From the NCBI GenBank assembly GCA_951406725.2, contig OX597831.1, positions 4,464,001 through 4,528,000 of the forward strand: DNA of 64,000 bases, in the 5' to 3' direction. The DNA is from Octopus vulgaris (lineage: Eukaryota). Each line of letters starts with the position of its first letter. The first letter of the stretch is position 1. Position numbers and translations under genes: made by a program. This document shows, piece by piece, positions 475 through 61,697 of this stretch. The notes under the pieces are model-generated. The model made no database searches, was not told the DNA's origin, and worked only from the letters and a program-made list of their open reading frames with translations.

Positions 475-2100
475 TATCTTCTTAATAGTCCATCTATCTC
501 CGATACAGATGTAGTCTGTGGTCTCAGACATCAGCGGAGGAAACACAAGTTGCTCCGCAGTCCAAAGCACACAGGCGCTCCCGGGTTGGACACTAGTAAT
601 CTGTGATCAGGACTGGAGAGGATGAGGCCCAGCGACACCTCTTGCTTGCGGCTGCGAAGCATTGCTGTCTATCCTTCTCAAAGACAGCTACAGCAGTATT
701 GATGATTGACCTCCGGCAGCCCTATTTGTGGCTGCGGTCTCGAGTTTGCGGAGTTGGATGTCACACCACTTTAGGTTGTCCTTTAGTGTCCTTATATCTC
801 AACTTTTCCGTGTTGCTTTGTGTTTCCTTGTTGCTTTGTGTTTTCCTTCAGCTGTTTGGGGGTGAGGTGGTCGTTCATTCTGATGACGTGGCCGGTCCAG
901 CGTAACTGGACTTTCAGTAGAAGGGCCTAGACGCTTGTGGACTCTGCTCCGTCCTGGACTTCTTGATTGGAGACTCTGTCTTGCCAGTAGCTGTCCATGA
1001 CTGTGCGTAGTGATCTTGCATGAAACTGTTCCAATTCCTTGCTGTGCCGGCGGTATGGAGTCCACGTTTCACAACCATACAGCAGCGTGGATAGAACGAC
1101 AGCTTTGTATATTTTGAGCTTCGTGGACAGCCGCACGCCTTTCTCTCGCAGTATTTTAATCCTGAGTCTACTGAGTGCTTGGCTGGCTCTCTGGGTCCTT
1201 TATCCTGGATCCTTTATTCTGAATCTCTTTATCCAGTGAACCATTTGCAGAGATAATGCTGCCTAGGTACCTGAAGCTTTCGACACAGTTCAGCTCAACC
1301 ACATCAATGGTGATGGCTGGCTTAGGTTTTGTTATATTCGGGGCTACCTGGGGCAAGAACTCCGTCTTCCCAAGGCTGTTGGTGAGGCCGAAGGGTCTGT
1401 ATGCCTCAGTAAAGCGGTTGACGATGATTTAAAGGTGGTTTTTCTTGTGGACCGCAAGGGCACAGTCGTCCGCGAAGAGGGCTTCGAGGATGAGATTTTC
1501 CCTGGTCTTTATTTTGCAGACAGGCGGTGGAGGTCGAATAAGGGCCATCGCTTCGGTACTTGATATACACGCCCAGGTCAAGGTTCTTCACAGCGTGGAG
1601 GAGGACCTGCGTGAAGAACAAGTTGAGGGACACTGGGGCAAGGACACGACCCTGTTTGACTCCATTAGAGGTGCTGAAGGAGTTCGTGTTGTCCCCGTTA
1701 GAAAGGATCTGTCCCTTCATGTTGTTGTCGAAGAGCTTGACCAGAGTTGTGAATTTTTGTGGGCAACCAAGCTTGCTGAGGATGATCCATAAGGCTTCCC
1801 GGTTAACTGTGTCAAAACGCCTTGGTCAGGTCAACGAACACGGCGTACAGATCCATTTCTGCTCAATGCACTTCTCCTGCACTTGTCGCACAGCAAACAC
1901 CATGCCTATAGTACTGTAACCAGGGTAAAAGCCACACTGGGCCTCGGGCAGGCTGCTCTCGGAGATGTTGGCGCTGAGTCCGTTGAGGAGGATACGGGCG
2001 AGAATCTTGCTTGATATGCAGAGTAGGGAGATCCCTCTGTAGTTGGTGCAGTCTGTCGTGGCTCCTTTGTGCTTGTGTAAAGCGACTATGGTGGAATCTC
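475..2100 (-). mobile_element. RTE-clade (BovB-like) LINE, 5'-truncated and frameshifted
   Basis: Minus-strand ORF pieces give GVKQGRVLAP, ESFRYLGS and KLKIYKAVVLSTLLYGCETWT. Also NYRGISL and FADD by manual translation. Confidence 0.92.
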
Positions 2101-2853
2101 GCTGATCTGTTGTCTATAAAACTGCAACTTCCAACAAAAACACGAAGGAATCCAGATTTCTGCAGCGGAAAGTTCAATCGGTGAGTTTATCTGGTATCAA
2201 TATCTAATCGTTATTCATTCTAATGACTTTTGAACCACGAATTAAAAACAAAAGGCAACGGACGAAGGAAGGATTTGAAATCGGAACACACAGGTACGTA
2301 ACTCCACACCATAAAACACTCGAACAGTGATTTTCTCATTTCTAAAATCCATCATCCATCATCGATCAAGCTCACACGAGCACGCAAAAAAATGTATTAA
2401 AACATATAGTTCTTTAGATTAATTATTTCAATAATTCTACTCTGATGTACAATATATTTTTTGCTTTACTTTATAAACAATAGAAAATTGGCATTGTGAT
2501 TCTTTTATTAATATATTGTCATTTCTGCTTCTTTTGATAATTTTAATTCCAAGACATTCGTTTTGTCAAATCTTCAACACCATAACTAACGGAGAGAAAC
2601 AAAAAATCTCTTAGATGGTCTTTATCAAATGTGAATCCATTAGTCCGGCTGCGTAATCAACATGTCTTCTTGTGGATTCGTTTTATTTCGAAAACACTCG
2701 ATCACCCATCTTCCTCATTTGTCTCGCATCATCAAAAGACATCTCTTCAAAGTTAGATCCTTCCCTTGAAGAATTATTACAGTTTAATTAGAAATAAATC
2801 ATTAACGCTAATGATGACTTGCATTATTACTTCAATCTCTCTCTCTCTATCTA

Positions 2854-4565: not shown

Positions 4566-4794
4566 ACATACATACATATATACATACACACATACATACA
4601 TACATACATATATACATACACACATACATACATACATACATACATACATACATGCATACACGCATACATACATACATACATACATACATACATACATACA
4701 TACATACATACATACACACACACTTATATACAAGAAATAAAGGGAGACAACAGGACAAGCAAAAGGACGAAAATCGAAGCTATATATATTGATG

Positions 4795-5622
4795 CGACCT
4801 TCATGCGATTTTCAGAAATCAGTCTACGGACCAGCGTTGTCAGCTGAGGTCATACTGCCACGTGGTACGACTTTCTTTCGCATTGCTGCTCACCTGTTCG
4901 TCAATTTTTGCGATGGCTGAAACGAAGGAACAGCGAGCTACCGTGAAATTCTGTTTTCTGCTGGGGAAAACCGCAACTGAAAGAATTGCTTTGCTTCGAA
5001 CAGCTCACGAGGACGCTGCCATGAGCAAAACACAAGTTTACGAGTGGTTTTCACGCTTTAGCAATGGTCATTTGTTGCTTGAAGACCAACTTCGTTCGGA
5101 GCGACCGTCGATCTCACGAACGAATGAAAACATTATGGAAATTCATGAACTGATCTTGGAGGACCGTCTTCGAACAATCGACGAACTTGTTGATAGGATT
5201 GGTGTGTTCTGGAGCTCCTGTCAAACGAATTTTGAGCGAGGACTTGCAAATGAAAAGAGTTGCAGAAAAACTTGTGCTTCGCTTGCTCATGAAAGATCAA
5301 AAGCAGTCAAGACTGAATGCATGTGGTGAATTGAAAGAACAGTTGGAAGTTGATCCGGACCTATTTTCGAAAGTCATCTTTGGTGACGAAAGCTGGTGCT
5401 ACGGAATTTGCAGATGTGGAAGACGTGACGAAATAAAAAAAATAAAGTAACGGAGGCGTTAAAAAGCATCACTTCGCAAGAGTTCCACCACTGCTTCCAG
5501 CTGTAAGAAACGCAGCTGGACCAATGCATTGCTTGAAATGGAGAACATATTGAAGGCGATAAAAATGTAAATATGTAAAACTAAGTGAATAAATTATTGC
5601 GGTTTCTTTTGGGTACTCCCTC
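4795..5622 (+). mobile_element. Mariner transposon remnant, internally deleted
   Basis: EQRATVKFCFLLGKTATE...VYEWFSRF (HTH region), then RILSEDLQMKRV...IFGDESWCY. Frameshifted, with a TIR-like right end near 5590-5622. Confidence 0.88.
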
Positions 5623-15235: not shown

Positions 15236-15880
15236 CAGCGGTGGTTCTTAACCAAAGTCCATCTGGCTCTGGGAGTCCATATAAGATTTTGCCGTTAAAA
15301 TTCATATCCAATAACTTTCTCATCCTTCTACAATACATTCTTGACACAATTCCTATTAATATTTAATTACAAAAGTGTGGAGGCGCAATGGCCCAGTGGT
15401 TAGGGTAGCGGACTCGCGGTCGTAGGGTCGCGGTTTCGATTCCCAGACCGGGTGTTGTGAGTGTTTGTTGGGCGAAAACACCTAAAGCACCACAAGGTTC
15501 CGGCAGGGGTTTCTGACGAACCCTACTGTACTTTTTCACCACAACTTTTTCTCACGCTTTCTTCTTGTTTCTACTGTACCTATATTTCAAAGGGCCAGCC
15601 TTGTTACACTCCGTGTCACGCTGAATAATATTCCCCGAGAACTACGTTGAGGGTACATGTGTTTGAGGAATGCTCAGCCACTTGTACGTTAATTTCACGA
15701 GCAAGCTGTTTCGTTTATCGGATCAAGTAGAACCCTCGTCGTCGTAACCGACGGGGCGCCCCAAATATTTCTAAAAATACAGTAGGATGTTTTTATATAC
15801 ACCGAAAGGCTATGGCGGTCAAAGTAGAATAAACTAGGAATCATAGGGGCCCATAAGCAGAAAATGTTTGAGTGCCACAG
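15236..15880. mobile_element. Degenerate hAT-like MITE interrupted by a SINE
   Basis: Ends gtggttcttaacc and tttgagtgccacag. Similar, in inverted orientation, to the MITE at 56358-56620. Confidence 0.5.
15378..15762 (+). mobile_element. tRNA-derived SINE, family B
   Basis: Head ggaggcgcaatggcccagtggttagg...ggtttcgattccc and tail cctcgtcgtcgtaaccgacgg. Confidence 0.9.
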
Positions 15881-16834: not shown

Positions 16835-16890
<56 letters not shown>

Positions 16891-16913
16891 CATACATTCA
16901 AAAAGTGTTCGCC

Positions 16914-17091
16914 TGTGTACCGTTGGCGATTTTTTTCCTCTGTCTTCCCTTCTCTGGATCTTTCCTTCTCCTATGTTTCCGACGAAGAGCTCCACTCGAA
17001 AAATTTCCTGAGCGTTCAATAATACTATATATGTTCCACATCCTCGCGTTGTTGTGTTTTCTCTTTGTGTTTTCATGTTTGGATTAACTTT
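16914..17091 (+). mobile_element. Short HHR-bearing repeat, family H4 (stem III deleted in this copy)
   Basis: gttt-CCGACGA-A-GAG-ctcca-CTC-GAAA at 16975-17001. Homologous to 19262-19432, 24713-24922, 25374-25460 and 45088-45163. Confidence 0.75.
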
Positions 17092-18529: not shown

Positions 18530-18747
18530 AAGGCGGCGAATTGGCAGAGTTGTTAGCATACTGGACGAAATTCTTAGCGTTATTTCTCACTTAGCTACGG
18601 TCTGAGTTCAAAATCTGCGCGGTCGACTTTGCATTTCAACAGTTTCATCATTTCGGGGTCGATAAATTAGGTACCAGTGAGACTGCGGTGTCGCTGTAAT
18701 CGACTTGTCCCCTCTCCACAAATTTGAGGCTTTATACCTCCAGAAGA

Positions 18748-18752
<5 letters not shown>
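18530..18752 (+). mobile_element. tRNA-derived SINE, family C (Nin-domain-like)
   Basis: aggcggcgaattggcaga...gagttcaaa...ggggtcgataaattaggtacc...gtaatcgact. Matches 35115-35347. Confidence 0.8.
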
Positions 18753-18819
<67 letters not shown>

Positions 18820-18963
18820 TAAGCGGTGAGATCCACAGATACTCCGTACAGAAGAATATTAGTAGTACTCAAAAGATTAAAACTTAGATTTCGATGTCTT
18901 TATAGATGATCGATTAAAGAATGGATGTAAGAAGGATCAAGTTGACCAGATAATTGCCTTACG

Positions 18964-19026
<63 letters not shown>

Positions 19027-19070
19027 AAACAAGTCAAAATAGAAAATGCTAAAATAATTTTATAAAGAAC

Positions 19071-19116
19071 ATTTCAGTACCGGTTTCGGTCATTTTGAGA
19101 CCTTTTCAACTGTAAC
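19071..19116 (-). ncRNA. Minimal hammerhead with compensatory U3-A8 core
   Basis: Minus strand reads gttacag-TTGAAAA-GGTC-tcaaaat-GACC-GAAA-CCGG-TA-ctgaaat. Confidence 0.75.
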
Positions 19117-19215
19117 GATTAAATAATTAAATTTAGAAAAATTAAAAGAAAAGTTTTTTTAAAGGAATATTTGTATAGTGTTCAAATATAAGTGGCATTC
19201 TGCCTTTCTCTGTCT

Positions 19216-19267
19216 CCTTGTTTGCACTTGTGTGTTTGAGGCCTCAAACACACAAGTGCAAACAAGG
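19216..19267. repeat. 52-bp perfect palindrome
   Basis: ccttgtttgcacttgtgtgtttgagg|cctcaaacacacaagtgcaaacaagg. Confidence 0.95.
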
Positions 19268-19432
19268 GAGACGTGGAACAAATATAGTATTATTGGACGC
19301 TCAGGAAGGAAGGGAAGAAGGAGGGTTTTACGTTTCGAGCGGAGCTCTTTATCGGAAACATAGGAAAAGGAAAGATCCAGAGAAGGGAAGACGGAGGGAA
19401 CAAAATCGCTAACGGTACACACGCGGTCACAT
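19262..19432 (-). mobile_element. HHR-bearing repeat, family H4
   Basis: Minus strand at 19325-19359 reads gttt-CCGATAA-A-GAG-ctccg-CTC-GAAA-CG-TA-aaac. Confidence 0.75.
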
Positions 19433-19502
19433 AAATATATATATATATACATATTGATAGATATATTTCATTATTAAAGCTCCAAAAACATCATTAAAAA
19501 AA

Positions 19503-19540
19503 TGTTACTCAGAGCTTCACGTTCCCGTTCGTCGGGCAGC
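19503..19540 (-). ncRNA. Hammerhead motif, family H3
   Basis: Minus strand reads tgc-CCGACGA-ACG-ggaa-CGT-GAAG-CTC-t-GAG-TA-aca. A15.1 is G in this copy. Confidence 0.6.
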
Positions 19541-19670
19541 TTTGGTTGAGAATGGAACAACAACAAAAATTAATGTTTTTTTGTTATGTCTTTGCAGCTT
19601 TAATAATAAAGTATATTGCTCTACCTCCGGTATTCGAGTACTATTTTTCCCACCTTGCTTCACATATATA

Positions 19671-24712: not shown

Positions 24713-24921
24713 AAGTTAATCCAAACATGAAAACACAAAGAGAAAACCCATTAACGCGAGGACGTGGAACAAGTATAGTGTTATTGGACGCTCAGGAAAG
24801 GAAACAAAGAAGAAGGATTTAACCTTTCGAGCGGAGCTCTTCGTCACTAATATAGTAAAAGGAAAGATCCAAGGAAGGGAAAACAAAGGAAAAAAATCAC
24901 CAACGATACACACGCGATCAC

Positions 24922-24922
<1 letters not shown>
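24713..24922 (-). mobile_element. HHR-bearing repeat, family H4, within (TA)n
   Basis: Homologous to 16914-17091, with gacgaagagctccgctcgaaa on the minus strand. Confidence 0.75.
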
Positions 24923-24979
<57 letters not shown>

Positions 24980-25373: not shown

Positions 25374-25455
25374 CCCTTGAGCGTCCAATAATACTATATT
25401 TGTTCCACGTCCTCGCGTTGTTGTGTTTTCTCTTTGTGTTTTCATGTTTGGATTA

Positions 25456-28561: not shown

Positions 28562-29671
28562 GCTTAATATGTTTTGCTAAAATTGCCGTTTCTTTTCAGA
28601 TATCATCAGAAAAAGGTAATTAAAATTCATTAAAATGACAGATCTATCCAACTTTCAATTAGGTCAAATTGTTGGTGCTCGTATGTCAGGCGCTAGCGTA
28701 ATGTAAACAGCCGAAATGTTTAGTGTACCAAGAAGTACTGTCTCGAAAGTAATGACAGCCTTTGAGAAAGAAGGAAAAACCTCCTCGTAGAAACAAAACT
28801 CCGGAAGAAAACCAAAACTTTCAGATAGGGACCGTCGGACTTTTACGCGAATTGTTAAAAAGGATCACAAAAGTACTTCTACCCAAATTTCTGCAGAGCT
28901 TAATGACCACCTCGAGAACCCAGTCTCCACAAAATCCGTTCGCCGGGAGCTGCACAAAGCCGGATTTTACGGGAGGACTGCAATCAGAAAACCACCACTT
29001 AAAAAAAAAAACATTGCAAAGTGTTTAGAGTGAAGTAAAAACCTACAGAATCGATCCCTAGAGCAGTGGAAAAATATTATTTTCTCAGACGAGTCATCCT
29101 TTACCTTATTTCCGACCACCCAGGCGGCCTTCTTCCAACTGTTAAACATGGAGGAGGATCTGTGATGATCTGAGGGCTATATCTTGGAAATCCGCCGGCC
29201 CAATGGTTTCTCTTCATGGCAGATTTAACTGTCAAGACTATTTAAGCATTTTCTCTGATCAAATTCATCCTACGGTTGCGGAACTGTTTCCAGAGGGAAA
29301 CGCAATCTTTCAGGATGATAATGCACCAATTCACACAGCTAAAGTTGTTACTGAATAGCACGAGGAGCATTCTAGTGAAGATTTGAACATCTTATCTGGC
29401 CACCACATTTCCCAGATCTCAGTATTATTGAACATATATGGAGCATTTTAGAAAAACAAGTAAGGAGCCGATATCCTCCACCATCATCACTACAAAAATT
29501 GGAGACTATTTTAGCTGAAGAATGGACAAAAATTCCTTTGGAAACAATTCAAACTTTGTACGAGTCCATACCTCGTAGAATTCAAACTGTAATTACGGCC
29601 AAAGGCGGTCCTACTTCATATTAAAATAAATTTGGTTGAAATTTGAAGGTGTTTCCATTATTTTGTACAAC

Positions 29672-30035: not shown

Positions 30036-31037
30036 TAGTTTCAGCTCAGAGCTGCAGCCATGCTGATGCACTGCCGTTTTGTGCTACACTGTTATTACGA
30101 CGAACCTCATCTAATATGTGGCACTTGGTGAAGAATGGAGTTTGATACAGCTACTCTCATTTGCACCTCTTGCGTGAGGTAGGTTCATCTGGGACACTTG
30201 ACAGGAAGATGTCCAGCTTTGTTTTAAAAACAGCTACATCTACTTTGTGCAAGTTCCTCAGACTCTTTGAGAGAATATTAAAAAGCTGTGGGCCCTTGAA
30301 ACCCAGGCTATTGCAGAAGCTGGTCCTGAAGCGTGATGGCACTATGCAGTGTCGTCCCGTTCTAGCATTGGTGTAGCTTACAATGCCAAAATTTGGCACA
30401 ATTACTTCCAGGATCTTCCAGACATATATTACTGCATACCTCTCCCGTCTTCTCTCCAGGGAGTAGAGTCTTAGCTGTTTCAACCTTTCCCAGTAGCTGA
30501 GCTGTTGCAAAGAGACGATCTTCTTTGTGAATCTTCTCTGGATTGCTTCAAGGTCCGCTGTTTATTTTACACTGGTGGGTGACCATAGCTGTGAGCAGTA
30601 ATCTAGGCGACTGAGGACAAATGTCCGCCAGAGGACCATCATGGTTTCCTTATCTCTGGTTCTGAATGTTCTTAGGATCCACCCAGCCAGTCGTCTGCAC
30701 TTTGTCGCCATCCTGGTAATGTGCACTTGGAAAGAGGTATCATCACTCATGTCGATACCCAGGTCCCTCACAGACTTAGGCTCTGGGATTGAAATTCCCT
30801 GTGGACCGGTGTATCTTGTAAGTTTAATATTCAGTTTTGGATGCTGGTAGCGTAGGGCCTGGAATTTTTCAGCATTAAACTACATATTATTATCCTCAGC
30901 CCATCTGTAGATTGAGTCCAACTCCTGCTGCAGGTGTGCAACATCGCTGGGGTTCTGTATTTTCTGCGAGACTTTCGTATCGTCTGCATAGCTGGCCAGA
31001 GTGTCTATCCGGCATTTGAGGGCATATCTGAGAGGGC

Positions 31038-45087: not shown

Positions 45088-45163
45088 CCCTGAGCGTCCA
45101 ATAATAGTATTTTGTTCCACGTCCTCGCGTGTTTGTGTTTTTTTGCGCTTTCATGTTTGGATA
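45088..45163 (+). mobile_element. Family H4 3' tail fragment
   Basis: cctgagcgtccaataatagtattttgttccacgtcctcgcg. Confidence 0.7.
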
Positions 45164-53550: not shown

Positions 53551-54275
53551 ATGGGACATGACGTTGTAGTTAAGACACTCTGTAATGAAATCCGTCGGAA
53601 GGATAATCCCGAGGACAAAGAAATAAGAACCCACAATATGGTAGTAGCCATAGCTACTCATAATAAAAAGGAATACTGGTGAAGTGTACAAGTGAAGGAC
53701 TTAATAAAATGTAAGCACAACAGGTCTGATATAATGATTTGAGATAGAGAAGAGAAACTGTGTACATTTGTGGAAATTAGCTGCCCACCGGATGTTAGCA
53801 TAAAGAGAACACCTATACTGAACTATTGAGAGATCGGCAGTTACTCTATCCAGATTACAAGTTCACGTTTATACCTGTAATTATTGGGGCCCTGGGATAT
53901 GCAACACACTGCCTAAATACCAGTCCTGAGAACTTAGGCTTCTCAAAATCAGAAAGGGGAAGGTCATTCGAAGGCCACAGATCCAATCCATTATTGGAAC
54001 TTGAAAAATCTGTAAAACTTCCCAGTTTATCATTTAAATCTATATGAGCATGTCTAGATATGCAACTATATGCATGAGAATACATACATAGAACAAAACA
54101 TAAAAATCTGCACGTATAAATACATACACACATACATACATACATACATACATACATACAAACAAAAATACCCTGTTGTTAATGTTGAAATTCCAATGAA
54201 GGAGCCTTGGATTTAGGTTAGAAACCGGCTCTTTCTCTATTGGCAAGAAATCATGAAATAAACTGAATAATGACA
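53551..54275 (+). mobile_element. 3' end of a restriction-like-endonuclease non-LTR element (R4/Dong-like)
   Basis: (R>G)HDVV...KCKHNRSDIMI*DREEKLCTFVEISCPPD...PVIIGALG gives decayed RHD and PD-x-E motifs. 3'UTR has AATAAA. Confidence 0.8.
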
Positions 54276-60493: not shown

Positions 60494-61697
60494 TGGGTTG
60501 GCAATATATACAGTTTTTTTTAAATTTGGGAATCTATTTGTTTTTTTGTTTTTTTTTTGTAGTTAATTTTAGTTAATTTGTTTTTATTTTCAGATCATTA
60601 AAATGGAATGTCAAATTAAGAAAAACGGGCATTTTCGGAACCTCCTTTTTGCTTTTAATCAAGGTTCGAAGGCCGCAAAGCTGCTCGTGATATTTGTGCT
60701 GTGTATGGAAAGGGTGGCATAGCTGAAAGAACCCGCTCGTGATTGGTATGCCAAGTTGAAAAATGGAAATTTTGACCTCAAAGACGCACCTCATTCTGGC
60801 CGTCCAGTTGAGTTCGATGAAGAGCGATTAAACGAACTTTTGGACGAAAATTCTCGTCAAACGACAAGGGAACTGTCAGAGAAAATGGAATGCTCCCACA
60901 CTGCTATAGAGAAGCATCTTCACTCGATGGGAAAGGTTCAGAAGTATGGAGCATGGGTTCCGCTTGCTTTAAGTAACAACAACAAAAATCAATGAGCCAC
61001 AATCCCCGCTGGTTTTCTTGCTCGTCACCGCTCAACTCATGGACGCAAACAACGATTTCTTTACCGAATCGTTACTGGCGACGAAAAATGGTGCCTGTAC
61101 ATCAATATAAAGCAGCGTAAGGAATGGCTTAGTCCCGGTGAAACAAAATCTTCTTCCGTGTAAAACGATGTTGTTCGTATGGTTGGACTGGGAAGGGTTT
61201 ATCCATTACGAATTGCTTGAACGGAACCAAACGGTCAACGCGGAACTCTATGTTCAACAGATGGAACGACTCAACACGGCTATTCAAGAGAAAAGACCTA
61301 ATCGGCAGCATGGAGTTCTTCTGCTGCACGACAACGCCCGCCCTCATATCGCCAATATGACCAAAGAAGCCATTCAAATGCATGGCTGGGAAGTATTTCC
61401 ACACCCGCCGTACTCTCCTGATTTGGCACCAGCGGATTTCCACCTCTTTCGATCTCTTTCAAATGCTATGCGCAGAGTTTCGTTCGATACTGATGCAGAA
61501 TTGAGAACTTGTTTGGATCAATATTTTGAGTCGAAATCGGGTGATTTCTACCAACGAGTTATTGAAAATCTTGTTGAACGTTGGGAAGAAGTTGTAAACA
61601 ACAAGGGTGAATACACTGATTAATTAGTTGATTATTTTATTAAACCTTTTAAAAAATTTAAACTTAAAAAAAAAACGGCGGGAACTTAGTTGCCAGC

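Follow-up and report, generated by a model that had tools for sequence, protein, structure and literature searches.

The stretch of Octopus vulgaris DNA analysed here (64,000 nucleotides, in the following called the window) carries a real hammerhead motif at 19071..19116. With a probability of roughly 0.7 we regard it as the hammerhead of a high-copy repeat, likely a Penelope-like pseudo-LTR, in which a family-wide U3-A8 would keep the pair of the active site and tandem dimers would cleave at A17. Standing in place of C3-G8 across the family, U3-A8 would preserve the active-site pair, and in a tandem transcript two motifs would join via the ACCGGU palindrome and exchange their helix I strands, which would give two cores. 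The cut is predicted 3' of A17 and would probably be slow or protein-assisted, as reported for other Penelope hammerheads. The window copy itself is probably an idle solo remnant, with no matching partner found in the window and no Penelope ORF among the frames scanned there.

Motif anatomy and known U3-A8 hammerheads

The core, stem II, palindrome, GUA site and 6/7-bp stem I that an initial annotation had described for 19071..19116 were all found there, but on the minus strand. Read in this direction, 19117-19070 form a type I hammerhead with the core UUGAAAA, a helix II of 4 bp, a palindromic ACCGGU helix III and a GUA triplet (Table 1). The motif has the order required for a hammerhead, namely N3 U4 G5 A6 N7 N8 A9 / G12 A13 A14, A15.1-U16.1 and H17, and positions 3 and 8 can form a Watson-Crick pair, U3-A8, in the window copy as well as family-wide. 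Within 19071..19116 helix I shows 6 of 7 pairs (five Watson-Crick, one G.U and one A.A mismatch at the fourth position), extending to 7 of 8 when 19117 and 19070 are included. In the predicted fold helices I and II form and G10.1-C11.1 is paired (P 0.77 and 0.97).

Table 1: Features of the motif, of the repeat carrying it and of its surroundings (window positions).
Feature	Position	Strand	Remarks
(CA)n(TA)n microsatellite	18965..19022		element 3' end; TA-rich loose ends recur at the boundary in all 4 runs
High-copy dispersed repeat carrying the motif	19027..19199	-	loose ends 19025-27 and 19199; far end not fixed (survey span 19023-19211)
Helix I 3' strand	19070..19077	-	two outermost pairs broken in the subfamily with 19070 and 19071 variants
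A17 of the GUA triplet	19078	-	predicted cut on its 3' side, 19078/19077; predicted pairing with U3
6-nt palindrome, A15.1 to U16.1	19079..19084	-	length insufficient for a helix III that is stable in the monomer
Core G12 A13 A14 A15.1	19084..19087	-	
Helix II	19088..19102	-	4 Watson-Crick pairs, 7-nt loop; G10.1=19102, C11.1=19088
Core positions 3-9, UUGAAAA	19103..19109	-	9 directly followed by 10.1, without an extra nucleotide
Core numbering	U3=19109, U4=19108, G5=19107, A6=19106, A7=19105, A8=19104, A9=19103	-	
Helix I 5' strand	19110..19117	-	last bases YAG, also a splice-acceptor-like end
88-nt AG-free pyrimidine-rich stretch	19112..19199	-	ends at YAG directly before U3
Perfect 26-bp inverted repeat, spacerless	19216..19267		element 5' side; joins two hammerhead-bearing repeats
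Minimal-hammerhead-like motif of a second, unrelated repeat	19325..19359	-	broken C3.A8; 246 nt upstream, same strand

The motif exceeds the chance expectation. Using a descriptor that accepts any Watson-Crick 3-8 pair, a helix II of at least 4 bp and a helix I of at least 5/7 pairs, and which was composed after the motif was known, we obtained a single match in the real 64-kb window, the 19071..19116 site itself. Block-wise dinucleotide shuffling gave matches in 4 of 300 windows, with a palindromic helix III in one of the 300. The folding energy of the motif is ordinary (z = -0.93), 32 of 200 shuffles folding equally well.

None of the Rfam families matched the window at its gathering score. 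Hammerhead_HH9 (RF02275, clan CL00010) reached 20.9 bits (E 0.014) against 19058-19123 on the minus strand, a full-length match in the correct orientation but far under its gathering score of 52, so that the motif is not a member of this family. A scan for CUGANGA...GAAA returned seven other places and omitted 19071..19116, and the prediction that standard searches would miss the motif is therefore true; CUGANGA-based and Rfam searches undercount U3-A8 hammerheads of the Penelope type. Matches to miRNA, snoRNA and other Rfam families near the motif were discarded, all of them being under the gathering score and most lying on the inverted repeat and the microsatellite.

That positions 3 and 8 pair in the active fold, on which the initial annotation had relied, is established (PMC3884650). 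The novelty that it implied for U3-A8 has to be given up, as natural U3-A8 variants are already contained in PMC3088659 and about 1,300 matches in Penelope-like elements in PMC4209133. Perreault et al. reported in 2011 that C3-G8 covaries to U3-A8 in several natural hammerheads from genomic and metagenomic sequences and, citing other work, stated that the in vitro activity of U3-A8 hammerheads had been proven earlier (PMC3088659). These variants show the same compensatory change with the same interpretation, whereas the available part of that paper does not describe them as minimal motifs of retroelements. Cervera and De la Pena found U3-A8 in 2014 in the Cercyon Penelope-like elements of Schistosoma, where their first descriptor had missed it and a dedicated U3-A8 descriptor yielded the approximately 1,300 matches (PMC4209133). 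According to our own count in Fig. S3 of that paper, U3-A8 occurs in 2 of 56 representatives, one of them with an identical UUGAAAA and a linked ORF, and U3.G8 in one (the Saccoglossus row); A17 is present in 6 of the 56, never together with U3, and the three mollusc rows are C3-G8. An extra nucleotide between 9 and 10.1 is typical of Penelope minimal hammerheads and is lacking in the octopus motif; as it is also missing in 2 of the 56 published representatives (PMC4209133), it is common and not obligatory. With the swap published in 2011 and 2014 the octopus motif is thus an ordinary new example, with which one more abundant repeat family of animals joins the U3-A8 hammerheads already published for the Penelope type.

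The U3-A8 hammerheads of S. mansoni Cercyon (PMC4209133) are likewise of type I (the row S. mansoni(4) has UUGAAAA), and they share with the octopus motif a palindromic 15-16 region, mostly solo dispersed copies, a predicted action as dimers and the fact that a C3-G8 descriptor misses them. In contrast to Cercyon, the octopus palindrome has 6 nt instead of 4, helix II has 4 bp, no extra nucleotide follows A9, position 17 is A where two Schistosoma rows have U and G, and no linked ORF was seen. Palindromic mini-helix-III Penelope hammerheads have been described from Drosophila virilis, D. willistoni, Aedes, shrimp and Saccoglossus(2) (PMC4209133). They have in common with the octopus motif the short palindromic helix III, in several cases A17, and in D. 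virilis an intron end beside the helix I 5' strand, but they carry C3-G8, and the octopus intron is a candidate deduced from acceptor-like sequence. In the literature searched, most subscription journals lying outside it, we found no description of the octopus repeat family or of a U3-A17 trap.

The repeat family and its U3-A8 state

For the family survey, contigs of 4 of 24 public runs (four organisms, three studies) were placed on 19023-19211 with cut-offs of 80% likeness and a 3% share; contigs drop rare variants, and relatives less than 80% alike lie outside the survey. The runs gave 1,733, 3,781, 2,790 and 1,092 contigs, 9,396 in all, and such numbers mark the stretch as a high-copy repeat, although they do not equal copy numbers. 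One of the four runs may be the source of the window. Part of 18815-19200 is present in 20 of the 24 runs listed; none of these 20 is listed as an RNA run, which says nothing about expression. A blastn search with 18601-19600 detected 19023-19211 just once in the window, and scans for relatives in collections of metagenome contigs and viral contigs gave 0 matches. Contig counts and the one copy in the window characterise a large dispersed family of mostly single motifs, and the repeat is likely a solo pseudo-LTR or a non-autonomous derivative.

Another letter reached at least 3% at 12 of the 189 positions of 19023-19211, with three variable sites among the 46 positions of the motif and nine among the 143 outside. 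The three within the motif are helix ends, namely 19071, C11.1, a CpG site that reads U at 13-34% of the depth, and G10.1, which reads A at 0.3-4%. U3 (19109), A8 (19104) and all 12 fixed core positions showed no variant of at least 3% in any of the four runs, and U3-A8 is therefore the state of the family and not a decay of the window copy. The consensus thus keeps the 3-8 pair in all four runs, the point on which the initial annotation had made its claim depend. A subfamily with another upstream flank, visible in each run as 20-53 contigs whose loose ends lie behind 19094, retains U3...A8 as well, and C3-G8 members were not seen among copies at least 80% alike at 3% depth in the four runs. 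As the variant shares of 19117 and 19070 do not track one another across runs, we claim no covariation for these two positions.

The double change had also been taken to indicate selection for catalysis. This stands as a plausible inference, but the family provides neither a C3-G8/U3-A8 covariation nor an excess of core conservation for it, 0 of 12 varying core sites having a P of 0.44 under an even spread. It is nevertheless reasonable, because the canonical core is changed solely at the two bases that pair and because the swap recurs in distant organisms.

Probable Penelope-like context, predicted dimer and alternative readings

As no Penelope ORF was found in the frames scanned, the link to Penelope is drawn from the architecture of the repeat. 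The type I motif with its palindromic mini helix III, the TA-microsatellite boundary and the second minimal-hammerhead repeat nearby all speak for a context of the Penelope type. The inverted repeat at its 5' side may correspond to a Penelope 5' inversion, which it resembles; Penelope-like elements have been described to insert at (TA)n and to leave inverted copies that are truncated at the 5' end (PMC8557442). The AG-free stretch possibly represents the 3' end of an intron overlapping helix I. A comparable AG-free run in complex sequence accompanies 29 of the 5,357 AG dinucleotides of the window, the subfamily with the different flank also has YAG before U3, and in D. virilis Penelope an intron terminates at the 5' side of helix I (PMC4209133). 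Neither a Penelope RT nor a GIY-YIG match was obtained in the 56 frames scanned (54 of the 70 longest and two short local frames) of the 227 complex stop-to-stop frames in the window. What these frames matched was RVT_1 at 1409-2113 (two RT matches, 17 kb away), pieces of mariner/Tc1-type transposases and one weak Dcc1. An ATG in loop II was considered as the start of an element ORF, the ORF of Anolis PAc beginning at helix II (PMC11167929), and was rejected; it is preceded by AAA and opens just 14 codons (19093-19049, minus strand).

The minimum free energy structure predicted for the dimer is the double-hammerhead topology (-27.1 kcal/mol compared to -9.8 kcal/mol per monomer), in which an intermolecular helix III of 6 bp (duplex -8.3 kcal/mol) is expected to form with a P of 0.92 for A15.1:U16.1 between the strands. 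The motif thus combines a very short palindromic helix III with a favoured dimer topology, the dimer being a prediction. Helix III of minimal Penelope-type motifs does not close alone, and cleavage is thought to be slow and to proceed as dimers (PMC4209133, PMC6765202). The hammerhead of PAc (Poseidon) from Anolis carolinensis requires the protein of the element, while hammerhead mutants had no effect on its insertion in vitro and cleavage is dispensable there (PMC11167929). PAc is also a Penelope hammerhead for which single and double mutants of the 3-8 pair have been analysed (C3G, G8C, partial rescue), but it has the canonical C3-G8, a known linked ORF and a demonstrated protein requirement (PMC11167929).

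The same calculations let U3 pair with A17, by which helix I would continue across the cut site (P 0.71 for the monomer, 0.84 for the dimer); in silico changes of position 17 or of the 3-8 pair lower this P to 0.00. This pair mimics the C3-G17 trap, the accepted reason why G17 impairs minimal hammerheads (PMC3884650), and could trap the RNA; the ViennaRNA energy model leaves out the active core. Neither U3C nor A8G is therefore a clean control for the 3-8 pair: U3C would also abolish the predicted U3-A17 pair, and A8G results in a U3.G8 wobble as in the natural Saccoglossus Penelope hammerhead (PMC4209133 Fig. S3). With its combination of U3, A8 and A17 the motif offers natural material for two questions, namely whether minimal hammerheads are held back by a pairing trap between positions 3 and 17 and whether cleavage is required at all in Penelope hammerheads.

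A rather unlikely reading takes the family as hammerhead-derived and catalytically silent, with U3-A8 as a founder state, U3-A17 covering the cut site and a spread without cleavage. The predicted trap and its C3-G17 precedent (PMC3884650) would fit it, as would the lack of an evident tertiary loop contact in the motif, the indifference of PAc insertion in vitro to hammerhead mutants (PMC11167929) and a core conservation that does not exceed the background. However, ViennaRNA overstates the trap because the active core is not modelled, a U-A pair binds less strongly than C-G, and hammerheads with G17 still cleave when stabilised by tertiary contacts (PMC3884650). In addition, the core is retained in two subfamilies with differing flanks, and position 17 seems to be a purine in one of the U3-A8 families of Schistosoma, although this is uncertain as it comes from machine-extracted text of Fig. 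S2 (PMC4209133). Also unlikely is a reading of the repeat as a retrozyme- or SINE-like element instead of a truncated coding Penelope; it would then be a non-autonomous unit of approximately 200 bp whose own RNA is cut and circularised through the hammerhead. The short ORF-less unit between microsatellite and inverted repeat would suit such an element, and animal non-LTR retrozymes have type I hammerheads that are proposed to be pLTR-derived (bioRxiv 10.64898/2026.07.22.740005). By the definition given there a retrozyme consists of tandem units in which two or more hammerheads follow one another, whereas the window copy is single; a head-to-tail joint was not seen in 19023-19211 among the contigs placed, which show presence and not absence, and helix I is not of the canonical 6-bp type with tertiary contacts.

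We further consider, as a speculative and quite improbable variant, that the motif acts as a switch with U3-A17 as the off state and U3-A8 as the on state, the 5' strand of helix I being the end of an intron and cleavage taking place solely in unspliced, protein-bound tandem RNA. If so, splicing would remove an arm of the ribozyme and the U3-A8 swap would be regulatory, beyond a neutral compensation. The ordinary folding energy of the motif, together with a neighbouring hammerhead-like copy that gained A8 without a compensating change, could point to a motif that arose by chance in AT-rich DNA or to a copy-specific U3/A8 decay from C3-G8. Yet the scarcity of matches in the shuffled windows and the invariance of both bases in four runs leave this explanation practically negligible, and among copies of 80% likeness or more it is refuted. 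We prefer the reading as a Penelope-type hammerhead that keeps its 3-8 pair and would cleave as a tandem dimer.

Neighbouring repeats in the window

The second repeat family close to the motif has a Penelope-type minimal hammerhead with an extra A after A9 and a 4-nt palindrome. Its relatives were found within 24761-24957 (minus strand) and 16866-17042 (plus strand), with shorter pieces near 25378-25411 and 45089-45135. All three motif-bearing copies of this family in the window are defective, having C3.A8, G3.G8 or C3-G8 with a deleted 3' half. A cis dimer of 19071..19116 with 19325-19359 was rejected, as both the palindromes and the helix I strands mismatch and a joint fold leaves them unpaired.

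The window as a whole is AT-rich DNA of animal type and rich in microsatellites and fragments of mobile elements. At 930-2113 (minus strand) there are pieces of a non-LTR retrotransposon that match RVT_1 weakly, and fragments of mariner/Tc1-type transposases (HTH_48, HTH_Tnp_Tc3_2, Transposase_1, DDE_3) are located at 4793-5447, 28791-29621 and 60723-61620 (plus strand). The regions 30160-30879 (minus strand) and 53799-54044 (plus strand) give the impression of remnants of a retroelement RT C-terminus or endonuclease and had no Pfam match. A loose hammerhead scan additionally returned two copies of a SINE-like repeat near 15696 (minus strand) and 57532 (plus strand), in which the core pattern failed.
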